Source: Pseudomonadota bacterium (lineage in GTDB: Bacteria; Pseudomonadota; Gammaproteobacteria; Burkholderiales; Gallionellaceae). Taken from it: a DNA stretch of 64,000 nt. The notes under the pieces were generated by a model. The model saw only the letters and a list, made by a program, of their open reading frames with translations, was not told the DNA's origin and did no database searches. The translations under genes were made by a program, and so were the position numbers. The stretch spans positions 481 to 64,480 of the forward strand of contig JBDRPZ010000043.1 in NCBI GenBank assembly GCA_043826585.1. The letters are read 5' to 3'. Of this stretch, positions 4,515 through 27,077 are shown piece by piece. Within the stretch, counting starts at the first letter, position 1; each line of letters starts with the position of its first letter.

Positions 4515-5743
4515 GTGATCTGAGCGTAGCAGCGGCGCAGCAATGTATCATCGAGGCAATGAAGAGACTGGGTACGGAATCCGTGCCCTTGCAGCAGGCG
4601 CTGGGGCGTGTGCTGGCCACAGATGTGATCGCGAACCGCGACCAGCCGCCGTATGACGTGTCGGCGATGGACGGTTTTGCCATCCGCAGCGCGGACGTGG
4701 CGAACGCGCCAGCCGTGCTGGAGATCATCGAGGACATCAAGGCCGGCGACATGCCGCGCAAGACCGTGCAGGCCGGACAGTGCGCACGCATCATGACCGG
4801 TGCGCCGGTGCCGCAGGGTGCGGACGCAGTGATCCGCGTGGAAGACTCGGAAGCGGTATCGGAAACGCAGGTGCGCATCAACGTGTCAGTAAAGATGCGC
4901 AACGATATCCGTGACCGAGGCGAGAGCATGCGCCACGGCGAGATCGTGCTGAGTGCCGGTACCGAGGTCACGCCGGGCGTGGTCGGCATGCTGGCGATGG
5001 TGAAGTCAGCACAGGTCGAGGTGTGGCGGCAGCCGCGCGTGGCCATCCTTTCCACCGGAGACGAACTGGAAGGTCTGGACGAGCCGATCGATGCGAACAA
5101 GATCCCGGATGCGAACAGTTATGCGCTGATGGCACAGGTGCAGGCGCTGGGCATACAGCCGGTGCTGCTGGGCATCGCGCGCGATGAACCGGAACATCTG
5201 AAAGAGATGCTGCAACGCGGTTTGCAGTTCGATGTGCTGCTGGTCTCCGGCGGCACATCGGTCGGTGTGCATGACTACGTGCGACCGACACTTGAAGCGC
5301 TGGGTGTGCAGATGAAATTCTGGCGCGTGCAGATGAAGCCGGGACATCCGATGGCGTTCGGCGTGGCACCGCTGACATGGGTGTTCGGCCTGCCGGGCAA
5401 TCCAGTCTCCAGCATGGTTTGTTTCGAGCAGTTCGTCGGTCCCGCACTGCGTCATTGCATGGGGCATGCGAAGGTCTTCCGTCGCACCGTAACAGCGAAG
5501 CTGGAGCGCGATGTGAAGCACAAGCACAGCCGCACGGAATTCGTGCGGGTGATGCTGGGCAGGGAAGGCGGCGCGTTCACGGCGACGCCGACCGGGGATC
5601 AGGGCAGCGGCATCCTGCGTTCGATGGCGCTGGCAGAGGGTTTGATGGTCGTGCCAGCCGAGTGCAAGGGACTGGTTGCGGGCGAGCAGGTGTCGGTGCA
5701 GTTGCTGGACGGTACGGCCTATCAGGATGAAGCAGGGGAGTGA
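4511..5743 (+). CDS. moeA: molybdopterin molybdotransferase MoeA
   Basis: 410 aa. GTG start overlaps the mobA stop (GTGA), with AGGAG at 4501-4505. MoeA-like domains (...LVSGGTSVGVHDY..., ...GLPGNPVSS...). Confidence 0.9.
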   Translation: MSDLSVAAAQQCIIEAMKRLGTESVPLQQALGRVLATDVIANRDQPPYDVSAMDGFAIRSADVANAPAVLEIIEDIKAGDMPRKTVQAGQCARIMTGAPVPQGADAVIRVEDSEAVSETQVRINVSVKMRNDIRDRGESMRHGEIVLSAGTEVTPGVVGMLAMVKSAQVEVWRQPRVAILSTGDELEGLDEPIDANKIPDANSYALMAQVQALGIQPVLLGIARDEPEHLKEMLQRGLQFDVLLVSGGTSVGVHDYVRPTLEALGVQMKFWRVQMKPGHPMAFGVAPLTWVFGLPGNPVSSMVCFEQFVGPALRHCMGHAKVFRRTVTAKLERDVKHKHSRTEFVRVMLGREGGAFTATPTGDQGSGILRSMALAEGLMVVPAECKGLVAGEQVSVQLLDGTAYQDEAGE

Positions 5744-5744
5744 G

Positions 5745-6290
5745 ATGAAAGCACGTATCGGTTTCGTGACGGTGTCGGATCGCGCCAGTCGCGGTGAATA
5801 TGAAGACAAGGGCGGCCCGGCGATGCAGGCTTGGTTCGCACGTGTGCTGACCAGTGAATGGGAAGCCGTGGCACGGGTGATCCCGGATGAGCAGGCACAG
5901 ATCGAACAAACCTTGATCGAACTGGCTGACCGGGAAGGGTGCAGCCTCATCGTCACCACCGGCGGCACCGGCCCCGCATTGCGCGATGTCACACCGGAAG
6001 CGACCGAAGCGGTGTGCGAGAAGATGATGCCGGGCTTTGGCGAGCTGATGCGCGCCGAGTCACTCAAGTTCGTACCGACCGCCATCCTGTCTCGCCAGAC
6101 CGCCGGCATACGCGGCAAGAGCTTGATCGTGAATCTGCCGGGCAAACCTTCGGCCATCGACGATTGCCTGAACGCCGTGTTCCCGGCTATTCCCTATTGC
6201 ATCGATCTCATCGAAGGCGCATGGCTGGAAGCCGATCCCGCGCAATGCAAGGTCTTCAGGCCGGCGCACGCCAAAAAGCAAAGCGCTTGA
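5745..6290 (+). CDS. mog: molybdopterin adenylyltransferase (Mog/MoaB family)
   Basis: 181 aa from ATG 5745, 2 nt after the moeA stop. Mog-type motif IVTTGGTGPALRDVTPEAT. Confidence 0.8.
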   Translation: MKARIGFVTVSDRASRGEYEDKGGPAMQAWFARVLTSEWEAVARVIPDEQAQIEQTLIELADREGCSLIVTTGGTGPALRDVTPEATEAVCEKMMPGFGELMRAESLKFVPTAILSRQTAGIRGKSLIVNLPGKPSAIDDCLNAVFPAIPYCIDLIEGAWLEADPAQCKVFRPAHAKKQSA

Positions 6291-9651: not shown

Positions 9652-10045
9652 TGTGACTCTGCAAGAAAGGGTTGCGTGGTCAAGCTCAAGACATTTTGCG
9701 GTACTGGAGTACTCTTATCGTTTCAAGGTTATGTCGCTTTGCAATAAATATCAACCGTTAGGAAATTGTGCCCGAACTCTCCCTTCGGTCGGGAAGGGGG
9801 CTCCCCCTATATGTGTGCAGGCAGGACGCGGCTTATGCGGCTAGTCACTCCCAATTGCCACATGGAAATAAAGGGTATAAGGGGCCACCCCGATGCCATC
9901 CTCTCCAGGATCACAGGGATATCCGGCCGATAAGGGTTCCTGGATACGCGGGCGGCCAAGTGGCCCAGCCAAAAAGCGGCAAGGCGTCACCGGTAAATAA
10001 AGGGTCTATAATCCCACTGTCCCGAACCAATCAGGAGCAACGACC

Positions 10046-12498: not shown

Positions 12499-13488
12499 TC
12501 AGCGCGCCAGCTTCAGCGGCTCGGCTGCGGACTGGCCAAGGTAATGCACGTTGAATAATTCGTTCTCGTCGCGCCAGGTAGATTGCAGGTGCCAGCCAGC
12601 GGAGCGGGCCAGCTGCCGGAATTCCTGCGCGGTGTATTTGTAGGAGTTCTCGGTGTGGATGCTCTCGCCCTCATCGAACTCGAACGATTCACCGTTCAGT
12701 CGTATCGCTTGTTTGCGGCGGCTGACCAGATGCATCTCGATGCGCCCGTGCGCCTCGTTGTAATACGCATGATGTGCGAACTGTTCCGCGTCGAGGTGCG
12801 CGCCGAGTTCGCTTTGCATGCGCTTCAGCAGATTGATGTTGAAGGCGGCGGTGTGACCCGCGGCATCGTTGTAAGCGGCATTCAATATCCCGGTAGATTT
12901 CTTTGCATCCACGCCGATCAGCAAGCCGCCACTTGGTCCGACCAGGTCTGCGACGCGTTTGAGCAACTTCACGGCTTCGTCCGGTGTGCAATTGCCGATA
13001 GTGGAGCCGGGAAAGAACACCACCTGACGTTTACCCGCATGGTGCTTGAGCGCATGGCCGGGCAGTTGATGGTAGTCGGCGCACAGCGGTTGCATCCTGA
13101 GTTTCGGGAACATCTCTTGCAGGCGCTGTGTGCTTTGTTGCAGGTGCGAGTCGCAGATGTCGACAGGGATGTAAGCGGCATCATCGTCCAGATGCTGCAG
13201 GATCAACGGCGTCTTGATCGCGCTGCCGCTGCCCAGTTCGATCAGCGTGCATGATCTGCCGATCATCTCTGCCATCTCCGCGCCGTGACGTTCAAGGATG
13301 GCGGTCTCGGTGCGTGTGGGGTAATACTCCGGCGTCTCGCAGATCAGGTCGAACAAGTGCGAGCCGTGCGCGTCATAGAAATACTTGGGCGGGATGCTCT
13401 TGGGACGACTGCGCAAACCTTCGCGCACGCTACACAGGAAGTCGTCCTCTTCCTGATCCTGCGAAGGGGTGGGTGATTCGTTGCGCAT
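12499..13488 (-). CDS. egtD: L-histidine N-alpha-methyltransferase EgtD
   Basis: 329 aa with the signature ...PKYFYDAHGSHLFDLICETPEYYPTRTE... and SAM-binding ELGSGS. Confidence 0.9.
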   Translation of the reverse strand: MRNESPTPSQDQEEDDFLCSVREGLRSRPKSIPPKYFYDAHGSHLFDLICETPEYYPTRTETAILERHGAEMAEMIGRSCTLIELGSGSAIKTPLILQHLDDDAAYIPVDICDSHLQQSTQRLQEMFPKLRMQPLCADYHQLPGHALKHHAGKRQVVFFPGSTIGNCTPDEAVKLLKRVADLVGPSGGLLIGVDAKKSTGILNAAYNDAAGHTAAFNINLLKRMQSELGAHLDAEQFAHHAYYNEAHGRIEMHLVSRRKQAIRLNGESFEFDEGESIHTENSYKYTAQEFRQLARSAGWHLQSTWRDENELFNVHYLGQSAAEPLKLAR

Positions 13489-13586
13489 CAGATGTCCTCC
13501 GCCAGACGCAGACCGGAGAACATCCAGCGGTCCGCAGCCCGGAAAAAGTTGCGGTAACTAACGCGCATATGATCCTGTGCATTGAC
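13488..13586 (-). other. in-frame continuation of egtB after its TGA, encoding the conserved EgtB C-terminus
   Basis: 32 sense codons [32 protein letters not shown] in the egtB frame. The terminating TGA (13490-13488) overlaps the egtD ATG. Confidence 0.75.
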
Positions 13587-14726
13587 TCAACAACCGCCGC
13601 GCAACACCATCTGGTCGCACATGAACTTGCCGTTGTATTCGCCCAGCGTGCCGGGCAGCGGTTTGAAACCGGGATAGGGCAGGTAGGCGCTCTGCGTCCA
13701 TTCCCACAGGTCGCCGTATAGCTGTGTCATGCCGCTCTGCTGCGCGGGACGCGGCACATACAAACCGTTGTCGAGGAAGTTGCCCGCAATAGGCTGCGCA
13801 CTCGCTGCATGCTCCCATTCCGCCTCGCTCGGCAGCCGCTTGCCCGCCCAGCGTGCATAGGCATCCGCCTCGTAATAACTCAGGTGCGACACCGGCTCGT
13901 TCAGCCGCAGTGCATGCGCGCCGGTGAGGTCGAAATGCATCCAGTCACGATCCTGTTTGAACCAGTACAACGGTGCTTGCCATCCCTGTTCCTTGATTGT
14001 GCGCCACGCATCGGACAGCCACAGATCGACGCGCTCATAACCACCGTCTTCGATGAAAGCCAGATACTCCGCGTTGTTCACCAGTCGCGTGGCAAGACGA
14101 AAATCCTGCATGTAAGTCTTGTGGAGGGGGCGCTCGTTGTCGTAGGCGAATGCATCGCCGCTGTGTCCGATCTCGACGATACCTGCAGGGAATTCCTGCC
14201 AGCCCATCGCGGGCACCGATGCGGCGGGGGGCGGCTCGATCCGGTGATAGACCGGATGCAGCGGATTGATGGAGAAGTTGTAACGCGTATCCATCAGCAG
14301 CAACTCCTGATGCTGGATTTCGTGCTCCAGTCCCAGCTGCAAACGCTGGCGGATATCGGCGGCGTGTTGTTCGGGCACATTGCTTAGCAGATCGAGCAGT
14401 GCGCCATCGACATGATAACGATAGTCGTATACCTCCTGCACGGTCGGGCGCGACAGCATGCCGCGCTGCGGACGCGGGAAGAAGGTGCCTGCCGTCTCGT
14501 AATAGGAATTGAACAGGTGCGCATATTCTTCGCGCAGCATGCGGTAACCCTTCGCATACGGTACGAGGATGAACATCTCGAAGAACCAGGTGACATGCGC
14601 AAGATGCCACTTGGGCGGACTCACGCTCTCCATCGCCTGTATGCAGTAGTCCTCGGCCTCAAGCGGGGCGCACAATGCTTCGGAACGCGCACGCACCGTG
14701 CGGTAACGCTCGATCAGTTCATCCAT
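13587..14726 (-). CDS. egtB: ergothioneine sulfoxide synthase EgtB, truncated as sequenced by an in-frame TGA at 13587-13589
   Basis: 379-aa ORF. DinB-like N-terminus (SPPKWHLAHVTWFFE) followed by an FGE-sulfatase domain, ending ...VLRGGC. The full-length frame is 13488..14726 (413 codons). Confidence 0.85.
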   Translation of the reverse strand: MDELIERYRTVRARSEALCAPLEAEDYCIQAMESVSPPKWHLAHVTWFFEMFILVPYAKGYRMLREEYAHLFNSYYETAGTFFPRPQRGMLSRPTVQEVYDYRYHVDGALLDLLSNVPEQHAADIRQRLQLGLEHEIQHQELLLMDTRYNFSINPLHPVYHRIEPPPAASVPAMGWQEFPAGIVEIGHSGDAFAYDNERPLHKTYMQDFRLATRLVNNAEYLAFIEDGGYERVDLWLSDAWRTIKEQGWQAPLYWFKQDRDWMHFDLTGAHALRLNEPVSHLSYYEADAYARWAGKRLPSEAEWEHAASAQPIAGNFLDNGLYVPRPAQQSGMTQLYGDLWEWTQSAYLPYPGFKPLPGTLGEYNGKFMCDQMVLRGGC

Positions 14727-14733
14727 CGTTTCG

Positions 14734-15024
14734 TCACTCCTCTATGGTGACGCCGTGCCAGAACGCGACGTGATCCTTGATGCGGGCCGCCATGGCTGAC
14801 GGCTCGGGGTAGTACCATGCTGCATCCTCATTCACTTTCCCGTCAACCTCGACGTTGTAATAACTCGCTTCACCCTTCCACACGCAATGCGAGTGCGAGC
14901 TGCTGGGCTTGAGGTATTCCTGCTTCACGGATGATAGCGGGAAATAGATGTTGCCTTCCACGCGATGGATATCCTTGCTCGCCGCTTCGGCGATGATCTG
15001 ATCGTTCCAGATGGCTTTGGGCAT
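14734..15024 (-). CDS. DUF427 domain protein
   Basis: 96 aa. Pattern ...VEGNIYFP...HCVWKGEASYYNV...AAWYYPEP... is typical of DUF427. Its stop lies 7 nt upstream of the egtB start. Confidence 0.8.
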   Translation of the reverse strand: MPKAIWNDQIIAEAASKDIHRVEGNIYFPLSSVKQEYLKPSSSHSHCVWKGEASYYNVEVDGKVNEDAAWYYPEPSAMAARIKDHVAFWHGVTIEE

Positions 15025-15123
15025 GTTGTTCTCCTGTATGGCTAGTGTTCGATTGGTGGCCGTTGCTATGTGTCAGTCGCTTGATATCCGTTGAACCTTA
15101 CAGTGTGATGAATCCTCATCGAT

Positions 15124-16737: not shown

Positions 16738-17325
16738 TTATGCCGCCTTCTTGCAGCAGGCATACTCGTCAGGTGCCTGCCAGGCTTCGTTGGCGAATGC
16801 GGCATCCAGCGGCGTGTCGGTCAGGTGGTTGGTGTAGTTGCTCAGTGTCTTCATGGTGACGCCGAGCAATACTTCCAGCGCGTTCTGTTGCGTATAACCG
16901 GCGGCGAAGAAATCCTTCAGCTCCTGACTGCCGACCACCCAGCCGCGCTCGCGCACTACGGCACGGGTGAATGCCACCAGCGCATTCAGCTTCTGGTCCT
17001 GCAGGCAGCCTTGTGCACGCAGTGCATCGACGCGCGCACCGTCGACCTTGACCAGGTTGCGTGCGAGGAATGAATGCGCGGCTACGCAGTATTCGCAGCG
17101 GTTCTCGATGCTGGCCGAGATCAATACGATCTGCTGCTCTTCCGGGGTGAGGGCGCTCTGCTCTAGCAATGCGCCCAGTTGCTTGTAGGCGCTCAGCGCG
17201 TTCGGTGCTTCAGCCAGATGCGCATACAGATTGGGGATGAAGCCCAGGCCTTTGTTGGCGGCTTCGAGGATGGGCAAAGCGCCGACGGGCGCGCTTGCGA
17301 GGTCATGCAGTTTGAATGTGTTCAC
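16738..17325 (-). CDS. carboxymuconolactone decarboxylase/AhpD-like family protein
   Basis: CxxC-type motif ENRCEYCVAAH. The probable start is GTG 17325 with AGGAGA upstream (family N-terminus ..NTFKLHDLASAP). The longest ORF starts at 17373. Confidence 0.8.
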   Translation of the reverse strand: MNTFKLHDLASAPVGALPILEAANKGLGFIPNLYAHLAEAPNALSAYKQLGALLEQSALTPEEQQIVLISASIENRCEYCVAAHSFLARNLVKVDGARVDALRAQGCLQDQKLNALVAFTRAVVRERGWVVGSQELKDFFAAGYTQQNALEVLLGVTMKTLSNYTNHLTDTPLDAAFANEAWQAPDEYACCKKAA

Positions 17326-17441
17326 GGTCGTCTCCTGAATGGGTTGGGCAACGTATTTGTTGCGTGGACCCATTGTCAGGATGCGGAGGCTTGCCCTCCA
17401 TGACCGGAACAGCGTGATTTATGTCCGAACGTCCGGAAGCT

Positions 17442-18341
17442 TCAGCCGCGCACCTTGCCCGGCGGCACGCCGACGATGCGCTTGAACGCCTTGCGGAACG
17501 CGGCTTCCGATTCGTAGCCGCAGCGCAGCGCGATATCCAGCATGTTGGCGCGTTCGTCCGCCAGCATGGCTGTCGCCATCTGCATGCGCCAGGTCGCCAC
17601 GAATTCCATGGGCGGCATCTTCACCATCTGGCTGAAGCGGTCAGAGAACGCGGAGCGCGACTGGCAGGCCAGGGCCGCCATGCGTTCCACTGTCCAGACT
17701 TCGGCAGGCGCATCGATGAAGGCGGATACGGCTGGGCGCAGGTGTTCATCCGCTAGCGCGGACAGCAGTGGCGAAAGTTTGGGGTCCATCTCCAGTACAT
17801 GGCGCATCACATACAGGAACAGGATATCGGCCAGCCGGTCGAGGATCGCATTCGCGCCCAGCGCATTCTGCATCGCTTCATCCGTCATCAACTCGATCAA
17901 TGTGCGTATCTGAACGCCGGGCGGACTCTTGTCCGGGCGGATCAGCAGGAAGTCGGGGAAGGCAGCCAGCAGCAGGCGGCGGATGTGCGGCGGCAGATAC
18001 AGATGTCCGCATAACAGACCGGCACCCGGTGCATCGCGGTCCAGCGGGGCAGGGTGGCGGAAATCGCAGGCCTGTTCCGGGATGCCGGGCACGGCGCTGA
18101 AGGTGTGCGATGCGTCATGCGCGAAGAGGGCGATGTCTCCCGCATTCATGCGCGCGGGTTTGCTGCCGTCCGGCATCACGATCCACGCCTCGCCGTGACA
18201 CACCAGATGGAAAGTCGTCGCGTCCGAGCCGCCGGGAGTGGACATGTGCCATGCATCGCACAACTGGCCGACGTAATACACCTCGGCGCCGAGATGCAGG
18301 CGGCGCAGGAAGTCGTTGACCGGAAGCGGTGTTGTGTTCAT
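17442..18341 (-). CDS. AraC-family transcriptional regulator with N-terminal cupin domain
   Basis: 299 aa. C-terminal double HTH (...ALACQSRSAFSDRFSQ..., ...IALRCGYESEAAFRKAFKR...). Confidence 0.85.
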   Translation of the reverse strand: MNTTPLPVNDFLRRLHLGAEVYYVGQLCDAWHMSTPGGSDATTFHLVCHGEAWIVMPDGSKPARMNAGDIALFAHDASHTFSAVPGIPEQACDFRHPAPLDRDAPGAGLLCGHLYLPPHIRRLLLAAFPDFLLIRPDKSPPGVQIRTLIELMTDEAMQNALGANAILDRLADILFLYVMRHVLEMDPKLSPLLSALADEHLRPAVSAFIDAPAEVWTVERMAALACQSRSAFSDRFSQMVKMPPMEFVATWRMQMATAMLADERANMLDIALRCGYESEAAFRKAFKRIVGVPPGKVRG

Positions 18342-18348
18342 CCGGCTC

Positions 18349-18525
18349 TCAGAGTTTGCGCGGCAGTTCGCGTGCCGCCTTGCGGATGAAGGCGAGTTGT
18401 TTCTCGAAGTTGCGGCAACCCCGGCACATCAGCAGATGCATGCGCATGGCGATGCGCTCGCGCAAGGTGATGGGGCGGTCGTAGGATTGCGACAGGAGTT
18501 CGGTGTTGTGTTTGCAGTCGAGCAT
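18349..18525 (-). CDS. zinc-binding (ZAS, zf-HC2) anti-sigma factor, 58 aa, missing from the ORF track
   Basis: MLDCKHNTELLSQSYDRPITLRERIAMRMHLLMCRGCRNFEKQLAFIRKAARELPRKL carries an HxxxCxxC motif. It starts 7 nt after the sigma-factor stop. Confidence 0.7.
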   Translation of the reverse strand: MLDCKHNTELLSQSYDRPITLRERIAMRMHLLMCRGCRNFEKQLAFIRKAARELPRKL

Positions 18526-18531
18526 GTATGG

Positions 18532-19095
18532 TTACCTCGCGTTTCCAAACCAGTTCAGATCCAGGCATTCGCGCAATGCCAGCCGCGCGCGGTGCAGGAT
18601 CACCCAGCAGTTAGCCGTGGTGATATCCAGTTCCTGACAGATCTCTTCGGTCGACATGTCCATGAACTCGCGCATCATGAAAGCGCGCGCGGTGTTGAGC
18701 GGCATGCGCTGGTTGCATTGCTCGAACACGTTCCAGAAATGTGTGTTCTCCAGCGATTGTTCCGGTGCGTTCCAGGTCTGCGGCGGATCGGCCCAGTGGC
18801 CGTTCTGCTTGAACAGCGCGTCCACTAGTTGGTTCTCGTCTTCGCCTTCGGCCACATCCAGTTGCGGTTCGCGCGCGCGTTTGCGCAACACATCCATGAT
18901 CTTGTGTTTGAGTATGCCCACCAGCCAGGTGCGCGGCGAAGACTGTGCGGCGAACTTGGCTCTGCCCTCTATAGCGGCCACCAGCGTCTCCTGCACCACA
19001 TCCTCGGCCAAGTTGGGGTCGCGCAGTTGCAGCATGGCGTAGCGCAACAAATAGCTGCGATGTTCATGCAATACCTGGGGATCGATGTCGCTCAT
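18532..19095 (-). CDS. ECF-subfamily RNA polymerase sigma-70 factor
   Basis: 187 aa with region 2 (...YLLRYAMLQLRDPNLAEDVVQETL...) and region 4 (...STEEICQELDITTANCWVILHRAR...). Confidence 0.9.
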   Translation of the reverse strand: MSDIDPQVLHEHRSYLLRYAMLQLRDPNLAEDVVQETLVAAIEGRAKFAAQSSPRTWLVGILKHKIMDVLRKRAREPQLDVAEGEDENQLVDALFKQNGHWADPPQTWNAPEQSLENTHFWNVFEQCNQRMPLNTARAFMMREFMDMSTEEICQELDITTANCWVILHRARLALRECLDLNWFGNAR

Positions 19096-19197: not shown

Positions 19198-19839
19198 TCA
19201 GTGACGGGTCGCTGCACAGGGGTTTCTGGTTGCGCAAGGATTAGCCGCCGCACAAGGGTTCGTTGCGGCACACGGATTTTTCGCCGCGCACGGATTGCTG
19301 GCGCGGAATCCTTTCTGCAGCGAACCCGTGTAGGCCGTCAGCGCGGCCAGCCGCTTGCTGTTCCAGGGCAGCGGCTTGGTCGCCATCGGCACCACCATGC
19401 AGAACTGCACCATCTCATCCAGATGGACTTGCTTCACCCCGGCGCGCTCACCTGTCATCTGCACATAGTGCGGATAGGGTTGGGCGAAGGTGGCCTGAAA
19501 AGCACCGTTGTCGTCATGGCAGGTGCTGCACGACATGCCGTTGCTGCTCAGGCGCGTGTCGCTGAACAAGCGCTTGCCGTAGGCCATCAGTTCCTTGTTG
19601 CTGCCACGATAGGGGCGATAGTGGGCCGGGCGCATCACGCCCTTCACATCCATCTTCACCATTGCGGCGGCGCAGGGGTTGGCTGCCGCACAAGGGTTCT
19701 TCGCGGCGCAGGGATTCATGCGCGAGCTGCGCGGCGCACAAGGATTGGCGCGGCAGGGGGCGGCCAGTGCCATGCCGCCGACCGACAGGCTCAGCACGCC
19801 GGAAGCGATCAGGGTATTCATCAGACGGGTGGGTTTCAT
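19198..19839 (-). CDS. secreted mono-haem c-type cytochrome (CCP-like haem domain) flanked by NPCAA hexapeptide repeats
   Basis: 213 aa with a signal peptide (...GGMALAA), one CSTCH haem motif in GKRLFSDTRLSSNGMSCSTCH, and NPC(A/x)A repeats at both ends. Confidence 0.75.
   Translation of the reverse strand: MKPTRLMNTLIASGVLSLSVGGMALAAPCRANPCAPRSSRMNPCAAKNPCAAANPCAAAMVKMDVKGVMRPAHYRPYRGSNKELMAYGKRLFSDTRLSSNGMSCSTCHDDNGAFQATFAQPYPHYVQMTGERAGVKQVHLDEMVQFCMVVPMATKPLPWNSKRLAALTAYTGSLQKGFRASNPCAAKNPCAATNPCAAANPCATRNPCAATRH
19201..19302 (-). repeat. coding tandem repeat, C-terminal NPCAAx x5
   Basis: Translates to ASNPCAAKNPCAATNPCAAANPCATRNPCAATRH. The NPC codons vary synonymously (aat ccg tgc, aac cct tgt, aac ccc tgt). 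Confidence 0.85.
19663..19761 (-). repeat. coding tandem repeat, N-terminal (A/N)PC units x5
   Basis: Translates to APCRANPCAPRSSRMNPCAAKNPCAAANPCAAA, directly after the signal peptide. Confidence 0.8.
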
Positions 19840-19971
19840 TTCGTTCTCCTATGTGGGGTGGCGGCTGTTGGTCGTACAGGATATGCCATCCTTACAAAAA
19901 ATCTTTTGTGTAAGGAATCCGGGACTCAAACGACCAAACCACATCGCCCCATACAAACCAAGGAGATCGCC

Positions 19972-20346
19972 ATGTTCAAGAAACTGTTATTCACGCTGGC
20001 CCTGCTGTTCCCCCTGTTCGCGCAGGCTGCAGGCCAGCCCTACACCCAGGACAAACTGGATGCGCTGAACAAGGCAGGTAAACCTGCGCTGGTGTTCATC
20101 CATGCCCCATGGTGCCCGACCTGCCGCGCGCAGGATGCCGTGCTGGACAAGTTGCTGCCGACCGCCGAGTTCAAACCCCTCACTACGCTCAAGGTAGATT
20201 TCGACGACCAGCAGGATGTGGTGAAGGCATTCGGCGTGCGCTACCAGAGCACGCTCATCGTGTTCAAGGGCGGCAAGGAAGTGGCGCGCGTGACCGGCGA
20301 GACGGACAGGGACAAGATCGCTGCGTTGTTGCGCAAGGCGCTGTAA
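19972..20346 (+). CDS. periplasmic thioredoxin
   Basis: 124 aa from ATG 19972, with AGGAG at 19961-19965. Signal peptide MFKKLLFTLALLFPLFAQA and active site WCPTC. The 505-aa ORF starting at 18829 is a spurious upstream extension. Confidence 0.85.
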   Translation: MFKKLLFTLALLFPLFAQAAGQPYTQDKLDALNKAGKPALVFIHAPWCPTCRAQDAVLDKLLPTAEFKPLTTLKVDFDDQQDVVKAFGVRYQSTLIVFKGGKEVARVTGETDRDKIAALLRKAL

Positions 20347-20349
20347 GCG

Positions 20350-21075
20350 ATGGAACTGAGCGCAAGCAGCTACAGCCTGTCGTTTCTGGCCGGCGTGCTG
20401 TCTACCCTGTCGCCCTGCGTGTTGCCGCTGGTGCCCATCCTGATGGGCTCGGCGGCGGGCACGCATCGCTTCGGCCCGTTCGCGTTGGTGGGCGGGCTGA
20501 TGCTGTCGTTCACGCTCATTGGCGTGGGGCTGGGTTCGCTGGGCGGCAGCATCGGTCTGGAGCAGGATACGTTGCGCATGGTCGGTGGCATCTTGCTGCT
20601 GTTGTTCGGCGCGGTGCTGGTCTCCAGCCGCTTGCAGGACAGGTTCAGCGCGGCGGTCAGCCAGTTGGGTGTGGGGCAGGGCATGCTGGCGCGTTTCAAC
20701 CTGGACGGTCTGCATGGTCAGTTCCTGCTCGGTCTGTTGCTCGGCGTGGTGTGGAGTCCATGCGTCGGCCCGACCCTGGGCGTGGCGATCACATTAGCCA
20801 GTCAGGGCGAAGCGATGGTGCAGGTCGCTTCGGTGATGCTAGTGTTCAGTCTCGGTGCCGGATTGCCCTTGCTCGCACTCGGCATGTTGTCGCGACAGGC
20901 GATGGGCAAGTGGCGCGGGCGCATGCTGGCTGCGGGGCAGAAGGCCAAGAAACTGTTCGGTGTCGCCTTGCTGCTGATCGGCGTGCTGGTGCTGTCGGGT
21001 GCGGACAAGGGCTTCGAGCGTTGGGCGGTCAACGCCATGCCGGAGTGGATGGTTAACCTGACTACACGCTACTGA
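20350..21075 (+). CDS. CcdA/DsbD-like cytochrome c biogenesis thiol:disulfide transporter
   Basis: 241 aa, 6+ TM helices, conserved LSPCVLPLVP and ...WSPCVGP... motifs. Confidence 0.85.
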   Translation: MELSASSYSLSFLAGVLSTLSPCVLPLVPILMGSAAGTHRFGPFALVGGLMLSFTLIGVGLGSLGGSIGLEQDTLRMVGGILLLLFGAVLVSSRLQDRFSAAVSQLGVGQGMLARFNLDGLHGQFLLGLLLGVVWSPCVGPTLGVAITLASQGEAMVQVASVMLVFSLGAGLPLLALGMLSRQAMGKWRGRMLAAGQKAKKLFGVALLLIGVLVLSGADKGFERWAVNAMPEWMVNLTTRY

Positions 21076-21090
21076 GAAGTGGAGGCGAAG

Positions 21091-21927
21091 ATGTCCGAGA
21101 AAGAATCCCTGTTGAATACGCTGCTTGGTCTGTCGATGATCGTCGAGGCGCGCGATCCGTACACAGGCGGCCACCTGTGGCGTGTGTCGCAATTCTCCAA
21201 GTTGCTGGCGCAGGAGGCGGGCCTGTCGCAACGTGACATCGCGTTGTGCGAGGTCGGCGGCTTCCTGCACGACCTGGGCAAGGTCGGTGTGTCCGACGCC
21301 ATCCTCAACAAGCCGGATCGGCTCACCGATGGCGAATACGCTGTGATCAAGACACATCCCTCGGTCGGCGGTCGTCTGCTGTCCAACCATCCGTTGGCTG
21401 ATCTGGCCTACGAGGCGGTGGTCGGCCACCACGAACGACCGGACGGCAACGGCTACCCGAACGGATTGGCCGGCGAAGTCATCCCGGAAGTCGCGCGCAT
21501 CGTCAGCATCGCCGACGCCTTCGACGCCATGACCAGCACACGCGCCTATCGCAAAGGCATGCCGATGGAAAAAGCATTCTCCATCATCGGCGAAGAAACG
21601 GGACGCCAGTTCGATGCGAAGCTGGCGAAACATTTCCTGTCGCTGAGCAAGACCAGCCAGTTGTCGCACATCGTCGGTCACAGCGAACCCGGCTTGCCGC
21701 TGTTCCAGTGCGGTTGCGGCGCACCGCTGGCGATACGTGGCTCGATGCGCGACGGCGAGCATGCGTATTGCCACTGCTGCGGCGGTGAATCGCGCCTGAG
21801 CAAACATGGCGACGAGCGCAAACTGGAAATGACAGGCAAGAAAGGCGATGCCTCGGTGCTCGCGCCGGACTGCGACACCGACCTGATCGGGGCGATGGTG
21901 GAAGAGATCGCGCCGCATGTGTTGTGA
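21091..21927 (+). CDS. HD-GYP domain protein (putative c-di-GMP phosphodiesterase) with C-terminal Cys-rich ribbon
   Basis: HDLGK...GHHERPDGNGYP motifs. C-terminal FQCGCG...YCHCCG. ATG 21091 has GGAGG 5 nt upstream; the ORF-track start at 21079 is GTG. Confidence 0.85.
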   Translation: MSEKESLLNTLLGLSMIVEARDPYTGGHLWRVSQFSKLLAQEAGLSQRDIALCEVGGFLHDLGKVGVSDAILNKPDRLTDGEYAVIKTHPSVGGRLLSNHPLADLAYEAVVGHHERPDGNGYPNGLAGEVIPEVARIVSIADAFDAMTSTRAYRKGMPMEKAFSIIGEETGRQFDAKLAKHFLSLSKTSQLSHIVGHSEPGLPLFQCGCGAPLAIRGSMRDGEHAYCHCCGGESRLSKHGDERKLEMTGKKGDASVLAPDCDTDLIGAMVEEIAPHVL

Positions 21928-21935
21928 GCTGAAAA

Positions 21936-22313
21936 ATGAACACACAACTGAATAACACGGTCGAGATCAACGGCAGGCAGGTGCTGGTGGAGTGGAGCAA
22001 AGCCGCCGCCCGCGAACTCGCGCAACGCAGCCAGCCGCTGGTGGTCGAGCTGGAACTCTACTTCTCCTGCCTGGTGAAGAAGTTCGTCCACTTTCATGAA
22101 GGACAGCAACAGCGGGATACCATCACCGTGAGCGACAAGCTCGCCGTCTTCTTCCGTCCCGTCACTTCAACCGCCTGTTCGTTCGAAGTCGCAGACCGCC
22201 TGGGTCGACAGCCGGAGATCGAGCTCGACACGCCCAACGTGCGCAAGATCGCACCGAAGCGCATCAGGCTGGATTATGTGCGCGGCAATTGGCTGGGGGA
22301 GTTCTGGATATAG
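21936..22313 (+). CDS. hypothetical protein (125 aa), last gene of the trx-ccdA-HD-GYP operon
   Basis: ATG ORF 9 nt after the HD-GYP stop. Family not recognised. Confidence 0.5.
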   Translation: MNTQLNNTVEINGRQVLVEWSKAAARELAQRSQPLVVELELYFSCLVKKFVHFHEGQQQRDTITVSDKLAVFFRPVTSTACSFEVADRLGRQPEIELDTPNVRKIAPKRIRLDYVRGNWLGEFWI

Positions 22314-25626: not shown

Positions 25627-25845
25627 TCAGCAACATCCTCTCCCGTGTTCCTGCACCGGCGGGCACGGCACACTTCCGTAAGAGCAATACACGCAGCAGT
25701 CGCCCGGCTTGGGTTTGAGCAGGGTGTGGCAGTGGCTGCATTCGTAGAACCACTGGCATGAATCTGTCGGCATGGTCTCCAGTTTCTGTTGCCCGCAGTG
25801 CGGGCAGGTGAGCAGGGAATCCAGTACGGCTTGGAATGCGGTCAT
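25627..25845 (-). CDS. GDCCVxC-domain small Cys-rich protein
   Basis: 72 aa from ATG 25845 (the ORF-track start at 25851 is TTG). Motifs CPHCG, CSHCH and GDCCVYCSYGSVPCPP. Confidence 0.7.
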   Translation of the reverse strand: MTAFQAVLDSLLTCPHCGQQKLETMPTDSCQWFYECSHCHTLLKPKPGDCCVYCSYGSVPCPPVQEHGRGCC

Positions 25846-25847
25846 GT

Positions 25848-26612
25848 TCAACTTGCCTGGTTGTTGATCTCCTGCTCGATTCTACGCAACAAGTCTGGCA
25901 CTGAGATTTCTATCTGGCTGGTGATGTCCAGCGCGCGGTCTTCGAAAACGTCTGCGCCAGGATGCGCCTCGGCCCATGCCCACACGACCTTGTCGCGCTG
26001 CTTCAGCAATGCCTTGATGTGCGGACGGTAGAGCACGAACATTGCACTGATCCAGCGGTTCACCGGCAGCGATGGAAATGCGTGGTCGATGATGAAGTTG
26101 TCCAGCATCGCGATCACCTGATCGGCTGGATACCAGGCTTCAGCGGTCACCCAGCGGTTGGTGGTGAACAGGGTGGTGGGGTAGCCATCCCTGTCCATGG
26201 CGATGGCGATCAGGTGGGATAGCGCTTCGTCGCCCTGCGGCCAGGGATCGGTGGCCGGATAGTCAATGGGTGAGACACCGACAGGCATACCCTTGGGGCG
26301 CAGGAAACAATGGAAGTGGCCGTGCTCTCCCGCTTCGCTGCGATGTGCGTGGTAGTAATACTGCGCATGTGTCTCGCGGTCGTATACGTCGTCTTCCGGG
26401 TAGTGATTGAATTCGTAGAAGGTCTCGCCGCGGTTCAGGGAATCGCGCAGCACTTCGCCGACGATGTTCAGTCCAGCTTTGTTCAGCAGGCGATAGCTGT
26501 CCAGAACCACCAGTCCCGCCTGCCGCATGGTGTGCAACTGCGCCAGCGGCAGGCGGGCGAGGTCAGGCTCTGCAGCCTGCCTTGCGTTGAGTGCGCTTAG
26601 TGCGCTGCGCAT
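25848..26612 (-). CDS. hypothetical conserved-looking protein (about 254 aa, start uncertain)
   Basis: His/Tyr-rich core ...FYEFNHYPEDDVYDRETHAQYYYHAHRSEAGEHGHFHCF... Possible starts are 26666, 26648, 26612 and 26528. I chose 26612 to limit overlap with the upstream gene. Confidence 0.55.
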   Translation of the reverse strand: MRSALSALNARQAAEPDLARLPLAQLHTMRQAGLVVLDSYRLLNKAGLNIVGEVLRDSLNRGETFYEFNHYPEDDVYDRETHAQYYYHAHRSEAGEHGHFHCFLRPKGMPVGVSPIDYPATDPWPQGDEALSHLIAIAMDRDGYPTTLFTTNRWVTAEAWYPADQVIAMLDNFIIDHAFPSLPVNRWISAMFVLYRPHIKALLKQRDKVVWAWAEAHPGADVFEDRALDITSQIEISVPDLLRRIEQEINNQAS

Positions 26613-26884
26613 GGATTCCTGGCACCGCACGGATTCTTCGCGGCACATGGGTTCATGGCTGCGCACGGGTTCTTCATCTTCTTGTGTTTGGCAGCGCAGG
26701 GATTTTGCTTATGTTTGGCCGCGCAGGGATTCTTGCCAGCACAAGGATTGGCCTGGCTGCTCTTGTGCGAACGTGCGGCACAAGGATTGGCTGCGCCGCA
26801 CGGGGTGGCGAGGGCGGCGCCGCTCATGGCCGCTGCCAGTGCGCCGGAAGAGATCAGGGTCTTTGCGAGTGCGTCGAATTTCAT
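26597..26884 (-). CDS. secreted NPCAA-repeat protein (95 aa)
   Basis: Signal peptide MKFDALAKTLISSGALAAAMSGAALA followed by 9 (N/T)PC(A/G)(A/G) units separated by K/H-rich spacers, ending NPCAAH. AAGGAGA RBS upstream. Confidence 0.7.
   Translation of the reverse strand: MKFDALAKTLISSGALAAAMSGAALATPCGAANPCAARSHKSSQANPCAGKNPCAAKHKQNPCAAKHKKMKNPCAAMNPCAAKNPCGARNPCAAH
26600..26806 (-). repeat. coding tandem repeat, NPCAA units x9
   Basis: Translates to TPCGAANPCAARSHKSSQANPCAGKNPCAAKHKQNPCAAKHKKMKNPCAAMNPCAAKNPCGARNPCAAH. Confidence 0.85.
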
Positions 26885-27077
26885 GTTGGTTCTCCTTGGT
26901 TGTAAGGCATGGCCGGATCGGCGGATGCAGACATTGGTCGCAGCACTTCGACAATACTTACAAACAGGATGCCGCCTTTATGGAGAACGGCATTGACGCC
27001 ACAGACACGGGCAAGGATACTTCGTGCCGCGCGGTCGGATGTTCCTTCCGTTTAACGATTAATACCTTTGGCATTCT

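Follow-up and report, generated by a model that had tools for sequence, protein, structure and literature searches.

Why does a c-type cytochrome carry evenly spaced cysteines on both sides of its haem domain? The question is raised by a gene at positions 19198 to 19839 of a 64,000-nucleotide stretch of contig JBDRPZ010000043.1 (GenBank assembly GCA_043826585.1, family Gallionellaceae). This whole stretch is called the window. A second gene in the window, at 26597 to 26884, encodes a small protein built almost entirely of the same NPCAA-type repeat. The two proteins belong to a real, widespread and undescribed family of exported, disordered cysteine-repeat segments. The segments stand free or flank a SoxA/TsdA-type haem domain. 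This is firmly supported, and so is a genetic tie between the segments and the protein family DUF6969.

Cysteine-repeat proteins

Both repeat genes are real open reading frames (ORFs) at the positions given in a first-pass annotation of the window. Both lie on the minus strand, and translation of the plus strand at these coordinates gives no such protein. They contain the following features.

19198..19839, minus strand: NPCAAK-armed mono-haem cytochrome c, 213 amino acids (aa) (ORF; Pfam PF21342 SoxA-TsdA_cyt-c, E 4.8e-9)
19762..19839, minus strand: Sec-type signal peptide, residues 1-26, MKPTRLMNTLIASGVLSLSVGGMALA followed by APC, boundary ...GGMALA/APC (read from sequence)
19663..19761, minus strand: N-terminal cysteine arm, residues 27-59, with APC and four NPC units (sequence; predicted local distance difference test [pLDDT] <50)
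19300..19662, minus strand: SoxA/TsdA-type haem domain, residues 60-180 (pLDDT >90; Foldseek; alignment)
19516-19530, minus strand: haem motif CSTCH (C104-S-T-C107-H108)
19399-19401, minus strand: codon of the invariant Cys147 (alignment)
19201..19299, minus strand: C-terminal cysteine arm, residues 181-213, five NPC units (sequence; pLDDT <50)
26597..26884, minus strand: small secreted NPCAA-repeat protein, 95 aa, with Lys/His-rich linkers (ORF; sequence)

The cytochrome is flanked by the repeat on both sides, as had been described. Its N-terminal arm reads APCRANPCAPRSSRMNPCAAKNPCAAANPCAAA and its C-terminal arm SNPCAAKNPCAATNPCAAANPCATRNPCAATRH. Ten of its 13 cysteines are in the arms. The N-terminal signal pattern is kept in the fetched homologues. 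The small protein also has a signal peptide. It had been described as nine NPCAA units ending in NPCAAH; the ending and the nine cysteines are correct, and one of the units is TPC, leaving eight NPC. A six-frame scan of the window found 19 matches to NPC[AGST]. Seventeen are in the two repeat ORFs and two are isolated elsewhere, which agrees with a repeat family that occurs twice here.

AlphaFold, run with a 43-sequence alignment, modelled core residues 61-180 with pLDDT >90 and left both arms unstructured, with pLDDT <50. The arms are thus predicted to be exported, intrinsically disordered poly-Cys segments, in line with the flexible periplasmic poly-thiol arms of the first-pass annotation.

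The repeat logo, from 1,352 units in 127 proteins, is K(53%)-N(88%)-P-C-A(85%)-A(81%)-K(70%); values are percentages per position, and Pro-Cys is fixed by selection. Spacing from Cys to Cys is six residues in 802 cases in this set; the first-pass annotation had read a period of six, with one Cys per unit, in the C-terminal arm. Unit codons vary in both genes: Asn is AAT or AAC, Pro is CCT, CCC, CCG or CCA, Cys is TGT or TGC, and Ala varies too. Tandem Repeats Finder detected no DNA array in the cytochrome arms and weak arrays only (70-85% matches) in the small gene. The earlier argument from synonymous codons is borne out: since codons differ between units and the cytochrome arms hold no DNA array, the repeat is kept at the peptide level. 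The same two findings exclude recent DNA slippage as its origin.

Unit number varies between relatives, as had been suspected. Across 83 cytochromes the N-terminal arm has 2-18 units and the C-terminal arm 1-17. All fetched cytochrome homologues have arms on both sides of the core, with very unequal unit numbers. More than 1,000 homologues were present in the protein collection, most of them unnamed or named "cytochrome c peroxidase." The closest relative is from a Sideroxydans metagenome-assembled genome (MAG), with 94% identity and the gene order of the window. Other carriers are Gallionella, Rhodocyclales, Burkholderiales, Methylotenera, Pseudomonas sp. C11, Stutzerimonas chloritidismutans, Aquipseudomonas alcaligenes, Motiliproteus and Denitromonas. 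Carriers include iron oxidisers, denitrifiers, Accumulibacter, Methylomirabilis and some pseudomonads, and a variant form occurs in Sinorhizobium meliloti and Burkholderia glumae.

NPCAAK repeats also occur as free-standing proteins of 70-150 aa. A search with the small protein retrieved 108 proteins. Nearly all are secreted, have 53-166 aa and carry neither a name nor a Pfam domain. Planctomycetes, Nitrosomonas, Thauera and marine samples are among their sources. In this set the same cytochrome domain is the only one fused to the repeat.

The first-pass annotation recognised no characterised family with this repeat. Neither Pfam nor NCBIfam holds a model of it. A full-text literature search on NPCAA-type strings, DUF6969 and GDCCVxC gave no relevant paper, and the NPCAA strings returned unrelated papers only. 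In a scan that took one genome for each species, at least 569 bacterial species carried a cytochrome relative.

Haem domain

Pfam model PF21342 scores 36.5 bits (cut-off 27) over residues 88-177 (profile positions 2-85 of 88). The CCP_MauG model covers residues 83-117 only, about 35 residues (profile positions 2-37 of 149). Scores against the NCBIfam MauG and MbnH models are far below the cut-offs. The ten top Foldseek matches are all TsdA or SoxA, with probability 1.0 and modest E values (3e-3 to 1e-2). The best are TsdA 4wq7 and SoxA 1h31_A and 3oa8_A, and 1h31_A superposes with a root mean square deviation of 2.5 A over 95 columns. MauG and di-haem peroxidases rank lower. As modelled, the core is a SoxA/TsdA-type fold.

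The first-pass annotation called it a CCP-like (cytochrome c peroxidase-like) mono-haem domain. It is mono-haem, with the single motif CSTCH; the CCP assignment is replaced by PF21342. The public label "cytochrome c peroxidase" is likewise unsupported because the protein has one CxxCH instead of two and matches CCP_MauG in part.

Invariant core residues in the 43-sequence alignment are C104, C107, H108, P123, H124, V126, M128, Q145, C147, P151 and W159. C147 lies 39 residues after the proximal His and is also kept in arm-less relatives. We take the axial Cys of TsdA to lie 43 residues after its proximal His. Single-sequence, profile and C-terminal-half searches of PDB sequences never aligned this region with the SoxA/TsdA axial Cys.

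Defined by the core alone, the family is compact: clustering at 50% identity gives 290 clusters, of which 176 have E <= 1e-10. It includes arm-less forms (signal peptide plus core; P0405, P0407, P0414, P0443 and P0451) and tandem two-core forms (P0467 and P0465). Both keep the EMVQFC motif, so the domain is older and the arms were added to it.

A selenocysteine form of the invariant Cys was considered and is not established. The pattern EM[VI]Q-x-TGA, sought in metagenome contigs, matched once, by chance. The last residue of one cytochrome copy (L094:3001-3324, plus strand) is the one that precedes the invariant Cys, and the gene shares 4 nt with the start of an AhpC-TSA gene. Its product, P0477, is a true truncation; read-through gives nonsense, so the copy is a remnant and not a selenoprotein. 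In a Binatia MAG (L088:5614-6225, plus strand), the gene of a divergent cytochrome c that carries NPCAAK units at its C-terminus is interrupted by an in-frame TGA at 5971-5973, in the register of the invariant Cys column, with a small hairpin 13 nt downstream. Its similarity to the family core is not significant. This gene could be a selenocysteine form or a pseudogene.

DUF6969

The small repeat gene is followed in the window by two further genes.

25848..26612, minus strand: cytoplasmic DUF6969 protein (Pfam PF22308, E 1.9e-81)
25627..25851, minus strand: small cytoplasmic protein, Cys-rich, with a GDCCVxC domain (NCBIfam NF041374, 106.9 bits; cut-off 40)

DUF6969 probably starts at 26612, which gives it a 16-nt overlap with the end of the small gene. 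In relatives, too, orthologues of the small protein sit upstream of DUF6969. Neighbours were counted in 80 species loci and labelled by phmmer. DUF6969 is the commonest of them, present in 68 loci, within 3 kb in 54, at a median of 104 bp downstream of the cytochrome. It directly follows a repeat gene in 47 of the 68 (the cytochrome in 25, the small protein in 22). In some cytochrome loci it is not encoded within 10 kb.

DUF6969 has no signal peptide. It has an invariant His/Asp/Glu cluster, HYPxDDVYDxxxHxQYYYHxHR..EHGHFHxF, on a predicted beta-hairpin. It has no PDB relative by sequence, and its model (pLDDT 73) has no fold match. The only other Pfam signal is a weak match to DUF1702, itself unstudied.

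The association was checked in reverse, starting from DUF6969 in plasmid and chromid records. In Sinorhizobium (108 records) the order is periplasmic sulfurtransferase (rhodanese), YeeE/YedE, secreted APCAAG-repeat peptide, DUF6969. On Burkholderia glumae pBIN_2, thioredoxin, CcdA, an extracytoplasmic function (ECF) sigma factor, zf-HC2 and a major facilitator superfamily gene are followed by a secreted KCAP/KCGA-repeat peptide and then DUF6969. The peptide gene is preceded by a TGTAAG/CGAC promoter motif. After DUF6969 come a methylthioadenosine phosphorylase gene and two glycosyltransferase genes annotated "arsenosugar biosynthesis." The cluster is flanked by ArsS and a DedA/FAD-oxidoreductase fusion. 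A metagenome lineage also has a secreted Cys-repeat peptide just upstream of DUF6969. In Azospirillum, DUF6969 follows a Mla-type ABC transporter and no Cys-repeat peptide is nearby. The link is therefore general and not absolute, and DUF6969 is ruled out as an obligate partner. Residues around the Cys differ between lineages (NPCAAK, APCAAG, KCAP/KCGA).

The variant peptides lie at L098 ~5590-5954 (plus strand; Sinorhizobium), L100:5568-5837 (plus strand; Burkholderia glumae) and L094:2566-2802 (minus strand). The period is 6 for APCAAG and 4 for KCAP/KCGA. The Sinorhizobium peptide is unannotated in the public record examined.

Promoter motif and apparent regulon

Upstream regions of Gallionellaceae cytochromes align around a conserved TGTAAG(G/A)-N15/16-CGAC, which is mirrored on the other strand before thioredoxin. 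The window contains four matches to TGTAA-N17/18-CGAC against 0.45 expected, and none of 100 shuffles reached four. The four copies are these.

19871..19896, minus strand: ECF-type motif TGTAAGG-N15-CGAC, 32 nt upstream of the cytochrome start
19909..19934, plus strand: ECF-type motif, back to back with the cytochrome copy, 38 nt upstream of the thioredoxin start
26937..26962, minus strand: ECF-type motif TGTAAGT-N15-CGAC, 53 nt upstream of the small repeat gene
15076..15102, minus strand: fourth copy of the ECF-type motif, 52 nt upstream of DUF427-egtB-egtD

One motif and DUF6969 thus tie the two repeat loci together, a point that goes beyond the first-pass annotation. The genes around the cytochrome and behind the fourth copy are as follows.

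18532..19095, minus strand: ECF sigma factor of the TIGR02943 family (NCBIfam, 259.8 bits; cut-off 162)
18349..18525, minus strand: cytoplasmic zf-HC2 (ZAS) anti-sigma factor, 58 aa, with HLLMCRGC (HxxxCxxC) (Pfam; NF052368, 76 bits against 50)
17442..18341, minus strand: AraC-family regulator, Cupin_6 plus HTH_18 (best NCBIfam match RclR, below cut-off)
16738..17373, minus strand: AhpD/CMD-family peroxidase-related protein (Pfam/NCBIfam, neighbour analysis)
19972..20346, plus strand: periplasmic thioredoxin with signal peptide and WCPTC active site (Pfam)
20350..21075, plus strand: CcdA/DsbD-type membrane electron conduit (Pfam DsbD_TM)
21079..21927, plus strand: HD-GYP-type (HD_5) protein of the thioredoxin operon
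21936..22313, plus strand: conserved 125-aa protein without a family, last in the thioredoxin operon
12499..15024, minus strand: DUF427 (14734-15024), EgtB (13587-14726) and EgtD (12499-13488), ergothioneine synthesis (EgtB 504.8 bits, cut-off 360; EgtD 392.8 bits, cut-off 290.9; DUF427 by Pfam)

The cytochrome gene is the first of a cytochrome-sigma-anti-sigma operon. The sigma gene downstream has no motif of its own, so an autoregulated operon headed by the cytochrome is the simplest reading. Both repeat genes appear, from motif placement, to be in the regulon of this sigma factor.

Across the 80 related loci, 141 motifs occur in 2.54 Mb, against about 19 expected by our own base-count estimate. 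Directly upstream of module genes are 82 of the 141, among them 50 at cytochrome or small repeat genes and 19 at thioredoxin; such sites occur also outside the Gallionellaceae. Remaining sites precede DUF427, AhpC/redoxin, ArsM-like, ArsS-like and glutaredoxin genes. Known Cupriavidus ECF motifs, including RpoQ/ECF16, do not fit TGTAAG-N16/17-CGAC. Motif position and conservation suggest, less firmly than the family itself is supported, that the repeat genes are co-regulated with a periplasmic reducing pathway and thiol-protective functions. DUF427-EgtB-EgtD would be among these; DUF427 precedes egtBD in eight related loci.

The same motif also precedes three DUF2282 bufferin-type precursors (L024:12748-13008, minus strand; L043:15172-15465, plus strand; L058:4369-4734, plus strand). 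In one locus it precedes a Met/Lys/Asp-rich periplasmic peptide (L048:13222-13554, minus strand).

RsrA-type HxxxCxxC anti-sigma factors sense thiol-reactive stress. In the SigR-RsrA system of actinomycetes a short HxxxCxxC anti-sigma factor and an autoregulated sigma operon go together with thioredoxin and low-molecular-weight thiol synthesis. The window has a similar short cytoplasmic anti-sigma factor, sigma operon and thioredoxin, with ergothioneine as the thiol. It differs in its TIGR02943 sigma factor, its proteobacterial host and its mostly exported outputs.

Gene neighbourhoods

Two layouts are typical. In that of the Gallionellaceae, the window included, the small repeat gene is followed by DUF6969 and GDCCVxC; separately, the cytochrome is followed by sigma, anti-sigma, AraC and AhpD genes, and thioredoxin, CcdA, HD-GYP and the 125-aa protein run in the opposite direction. 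In the other, outside the Gallionellaceae, the cytochrome, with a small repeat protein before or after it, is followed by DUF6969, DUF302 and a permease. The ECF sigma factor is present in 38 of the 80 loci and the zf-HC2 anti-sigma factor in 33. Thioredoxin is present in 28 loci, divergent from the cytochrome gene, HD-GYP in 28 and CcdA in 27. The AraC regulator is present in 22, downstream of the anti-sigma gene. DUF302 and a YeeE/YedE-type permease occur in 32 loci each. DUF302 carries a signal peptide and is therefore assigned to the periplasm. The permease scores best against the YedE/FdhT and TsuA models, below their curated cut-offs.

Metal and metalloid genes adjoin the module in some loci. 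True MerA genes with the C-terminal Cys pair adjoin the cytochrome in seven of the 80 loci and in L001, and true mer operons lie beside it in these loci and in L092. A Rhodospirillaceae (alphaproteobacterial) contig has merA and merT beside merR, nrsF, cytochrome and Sulf_transp permease. In Zobellella the cytochrome gene follows copAB and a cusRS-type two-component system, and in Oceanisphaera it follows a resistance-nodulation-division efflux pair. Within 10 kb, 21 of the 80 loci have at least one gene for ArsS, ArsM or an arsenosugar-type glycosyltransferase. A literature search combining DUF302, YeeE and metal terms found nothing relevant. The window has no Sulf_transp permease, DUF302, rhodanese, mer or ars-like gene, nor any other of these metal and metalloid genes.

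Proposed function

Our preferred reading, held tentatively, is that the repeat proteins are periplasmic poly-thiol proteins of a thiol/soft-metal(loid) stress regulon and are kept reduced by thioredoxin-CcdA. The RsrA-like zinc-finger anti-sigma factor would hold the sigma factor and release it under cytoplasmic thiol stress. Thiol-reactive agents (Cu, Hg and As, or oxidants such as hypochlorous acid) would thereby free the sigma factor, and the periplasm would fill with flexible thiolate-bearing chains. These would bind the toxicant or be oxidised first, sparing essential targets. Thioredoxin-CcdA would restore them to the thiol state. The haem of the cytochrome would exchange electrons with its own arm cysteines, with S-S/S-X chemistry as in SoxA and TsdA. 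Anatomy, conservation, fold class, gene linkage and the sharing of one promoter motif have been shown. The substrate, the signal that induces the genes, the sigma factor that acts at the motif, recycling by thioredoxin and the role of the haem are inferred in this scheme.

The soft-metal part of this reading had been proposed in the first-pass annotation. It draws on gene context: mer genes, a cop neighbourhood in one locus, and bufferin and ArsM/ArsS-type genes behind the motif. By analogy with a Met-rich scavenger and with bufferins, the arms may serve as thiol buffers or ligands for thiol-reactive toxicants.

The scavenger is MrpX, which together with YedY1Z1 and under SigF-NrsF scavenges hypochlorite in Azospira suillum (PMC4436054). 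It too is a low-complexity periplasmic peptide rich in an oxidisable sulfur residue, and it is controlled by an ECF sigma/anti-sigma pair (PMC4436054), as is predicted for the repeat genes. It has a dedicated periplasmic reductase, for which the divergent, motif-bearing thioredoxin-CcdA pair is the candidate counterpart. The Met-rich peptide in L048 carries the same motif as the repeat genes. The residue is Cys here (9 in the 95-aa protein and 10 in the cytochrome arms), whereas in MrpX it is Met. Thioredoxin-CcdA would take the place of the molybdenum Met-sulfoxide reductase, and a soluble zf-HC2 anti-sigma factor stands in place of NrsF, except in L092. The haem domain and DUF6969 are extra. 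If the reading is true, the hypochlorite scavenger with its Met residues and the copper-chelating bufferins would have a counterpart based on Cys, and the cytochrome would be a case in nature of a SoxA-like haem joined to thiols that are its own substrates. The module joins the orphan families DUF6969, GDCCVxC, DUF302 and DUF427 and the 125-aa protein in one apparently sigma-controlled envelope response, which also holds ergothioneine synthesis, bufferin precursors and ArsM/ArsS-type genes.

Several points weigh against it. The pairing of promoter and sigma factor is drawn from position and conservation, and binding or oxidation of toxicants by the arms is putative. Metal-resistance genes adjoin the module in a minority of loci. 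A simple sponge needs neither a haem domain nor a cytoplasmic DUF6969. Nor does it need a periplasmic DUF302 and a YeeE/YedE-type permease. The thioredoxin-CcdA pair could serve ordinary haem attachment instead. The candidate sixth haem ligands C147, H124 and M128/M152 are all conserved. Because thiol buffering leaves the haem, DUF6969 and the permease unexplained, a covalent relay and a Cys modification by DUF6969 are live rivals. The three are mutually compatible.

Possible covalent relay of thiophilic elements

In a relay resembling SoxY or Mer, the arm cysteines would carry S, Se or As species covalently. The SoxA/TsdA-type haem would load them oxidatively, as SoxAX loads thiosulfate onto SoxY. 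The arms would pass the load through the YeeE/YedE-type permease to the cytoplasm, where DUF6969, GDCCVxC, and ArsM/ArsS or MerA-like reductases would process it. We consider this possible but, as it stands, unlikely.

The fold with its invariant Cys argues for it. PF21342 is above its cut-off, the model is closest to TsdA and SoxA structures, and the spacing from the haem motif to a conserved Cys is similar to theirs, taking the TsdA distance as above. A Cys on a flexible arm presented to a haem is also the working principle of SoxA-SoxY. The usual operon outside the Gallionellaceae (cytochrome, DUF6969, DUF302, Sulf_transp) and the best scores of its permease point the same way. So do the Sinorhizobium order from rhodanese to DUF6969, the alphaproteobacterial merR, nrsF, cytochrome and Sulf_transp adjoining merT and merA, and the arsenosugar-type genes beside the module. 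The first-pass annotation had named sulfane-sulfur or polysulfide binding as an alternative to metals. That idea now draws its support from context: the fold, the permeases in 32 loci and the Sinorhizobium rhodanese.

Against the relay, the window lacks the permease, DUF302, rhodanese, mer and ars-like genes. The cytochrome has one CxxCH, and no second haem or SoxX, soxYZ or soxB gene was found in the window or the 80 loci. The carrier also differs from SoxY, which has a C-terminal GGCGG; here there are many carrier cysteines, in disordered NPCAAK repeats on the same polypeptide. The permease matches stay below the curated cut-offs, and the axial Cys ligand is putative. The apparent stress sigma control sets the system apart from SoxAX and TsdA, and the regulon resembles a stress response more than an assimilation or energy pathway.

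Possible modification of the repeat by DUF6969

DUF6969 may instead be a new cytoplasmic metalloenzyme that modifies the repeat cysteines before Sec export. The product would be like a peptide that is ribosomally made and modified after translation (RiPP), a protein metallophore whose exported arms chelate metal through modified residues and not plain thiols. We regard this as improbable. It would account for a cytoplasmic protein with an invariant His/Asp/Glu cluster on a predicted beta-hairpin, encoded directly after an NPCAA-type gene in 47 of 68 loci and overlapping one by 16 nt in the window. It fits the secreted Cys-repeat peptides upstream of DUF6969 in Sinorhizobium, Burkholderia glumae and the metagenome lineage, and the strong conservation of the Cys context within lineages.

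There are precedents with Sec signal peptides. Bufferins, whose clusters hold sigma and anti-sigma genes, have such peptides and protect against copper (PMC11626156, PMC12452194). MNIO enzymes modify bufferins and the EGKCG repeats of oxazolins (PMC11626156, PMC11252979, PMC12452194). The precursors of the two are of the DUF2282, Buf_6/12Cys and Buf_EGKCG kinds, and the modified cysteines are thiooxazole or oxazolone-thioamide. The NPCAA proteins resemble both as Sec-exported Cys-bearing peptides, and the oxazolins also as short Cys-centred repeats of variable number (PMC11626156, PMC11252979, PMC12452194). Clustered sigma/anti-sigma genes are a further likeness, and bufferins and oxazolins act under metal stress, a role that is putative for the NPCAA proteins (PMC11626156, PMC11252979, PMC12452194). 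The DUF2282 precursors of three related loci carry the same promoter motif.

The differences are as clear. Neither repeat protein matches the bufferin/oxazolin signatures DUF2282 and HvfA/EGKCG in Pfam or NCBIfam. No MNIO (DUF692) or DUF2063 gene lies beside the NPCAA genes; their partners are DUF6969 with GDCCVxC, or sigma with anti-sigma. A haem-domain fusion is present here and is not described for bufferins in PMC11626156, PMC11252979 and PMC12452194. DUF6969 resembles no known enzyme by sequence or fold. The Cys context varies between lineages, Azospirillum has DUF6969 with no Cys-repeat peptide nearby, and the cytochrome loci that have no DUF6969 count against it too. It is correspondingly doubtful that PCAA-type repeats are the substrate, and DUF6969 the enzyme, of an undescribed pre-export chemistry on whole proteins, the SoxA/TsdA-type cytochrome included. 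The outcome would be a new class of protein-borne metal(loid)/sulfur carriers in which a haem works on its own modified arms.

Haem peroxidase as an improbable reading

A thiol-fuelled periplasmic peroxidase, in which the single haem would be the peroxidatic haem of di-haem peroxidases and the Cys arms, recharged by thioredoxin-CcdA, would replace the electron-transfer haem as reductant, is very improbable. In its favour, about 35 N-terminal domain residues around the haem-binding motif match CCP_MauG, and the invariant H124 lies 16 residues after the proximal His, which we take to be the distal-His spacing of Pseudomonas CCP. Genes for peroxiredoxin and for AhpD-like and RclR-like proteins also adjoin the module or lie behind its motif. 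Against it, the best whole-domain matches are SoxA/TsdA, and there are both free-standing repeat proteins without haem and arm-less cytochromes.

Additional observations

A conserved ORF of about 42 aa lies directly upstream of the cytochrome in many Gallionellaceae. Its head is rich in Cys and Met (MSMMCKMNSSCETTPGMCVHEKMM), and a single transmembrane helix is predicted. The ORF is located between the promoter motif and the cytochrome, at ~9800-9990 (plus strand) in L007, L009, L012, L014, L019, L020, L022, L027 and L030. It is absent from the window.

Genes with the NCBI names "arsenosugar biosynthesis" (ArsS, ArsM-like, and the glycosyltransferases TIGR04282 and TIGR04283) cluster with the Cys-repeat, DUF6969, thioredoxin-CcdA and ECF genes in L100 (pBIN_2), L005:14550-16929, L016, L017 and L024.

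A fusion of DedA/VTT with a MerA-like FAD disulfide oxidoreductase, 720-750 aa long, is near the module in at least 10 of the 80 loci. It has a CLNTGC active site and is without the C-terminal Cys pair of MerA. Examples are L062:18099-20285 (minus strand), L005 from 16926 to the end of the locus, L093:1-2154 and L100:10811-12597.

In Accumulibacter, a multi-haem cytochrome (Cytochrome_C554-like, 425 aa) is encoded downstream of the repeat genes (L091:8051-9328, plus strand). A gap of about 1.2 kb, which resembles the size of this cytochrome gene, separates the small repeat gene from DUF6969 in several Rhodocyclales loci (L043, L045, L057, L060, L063 and L083).

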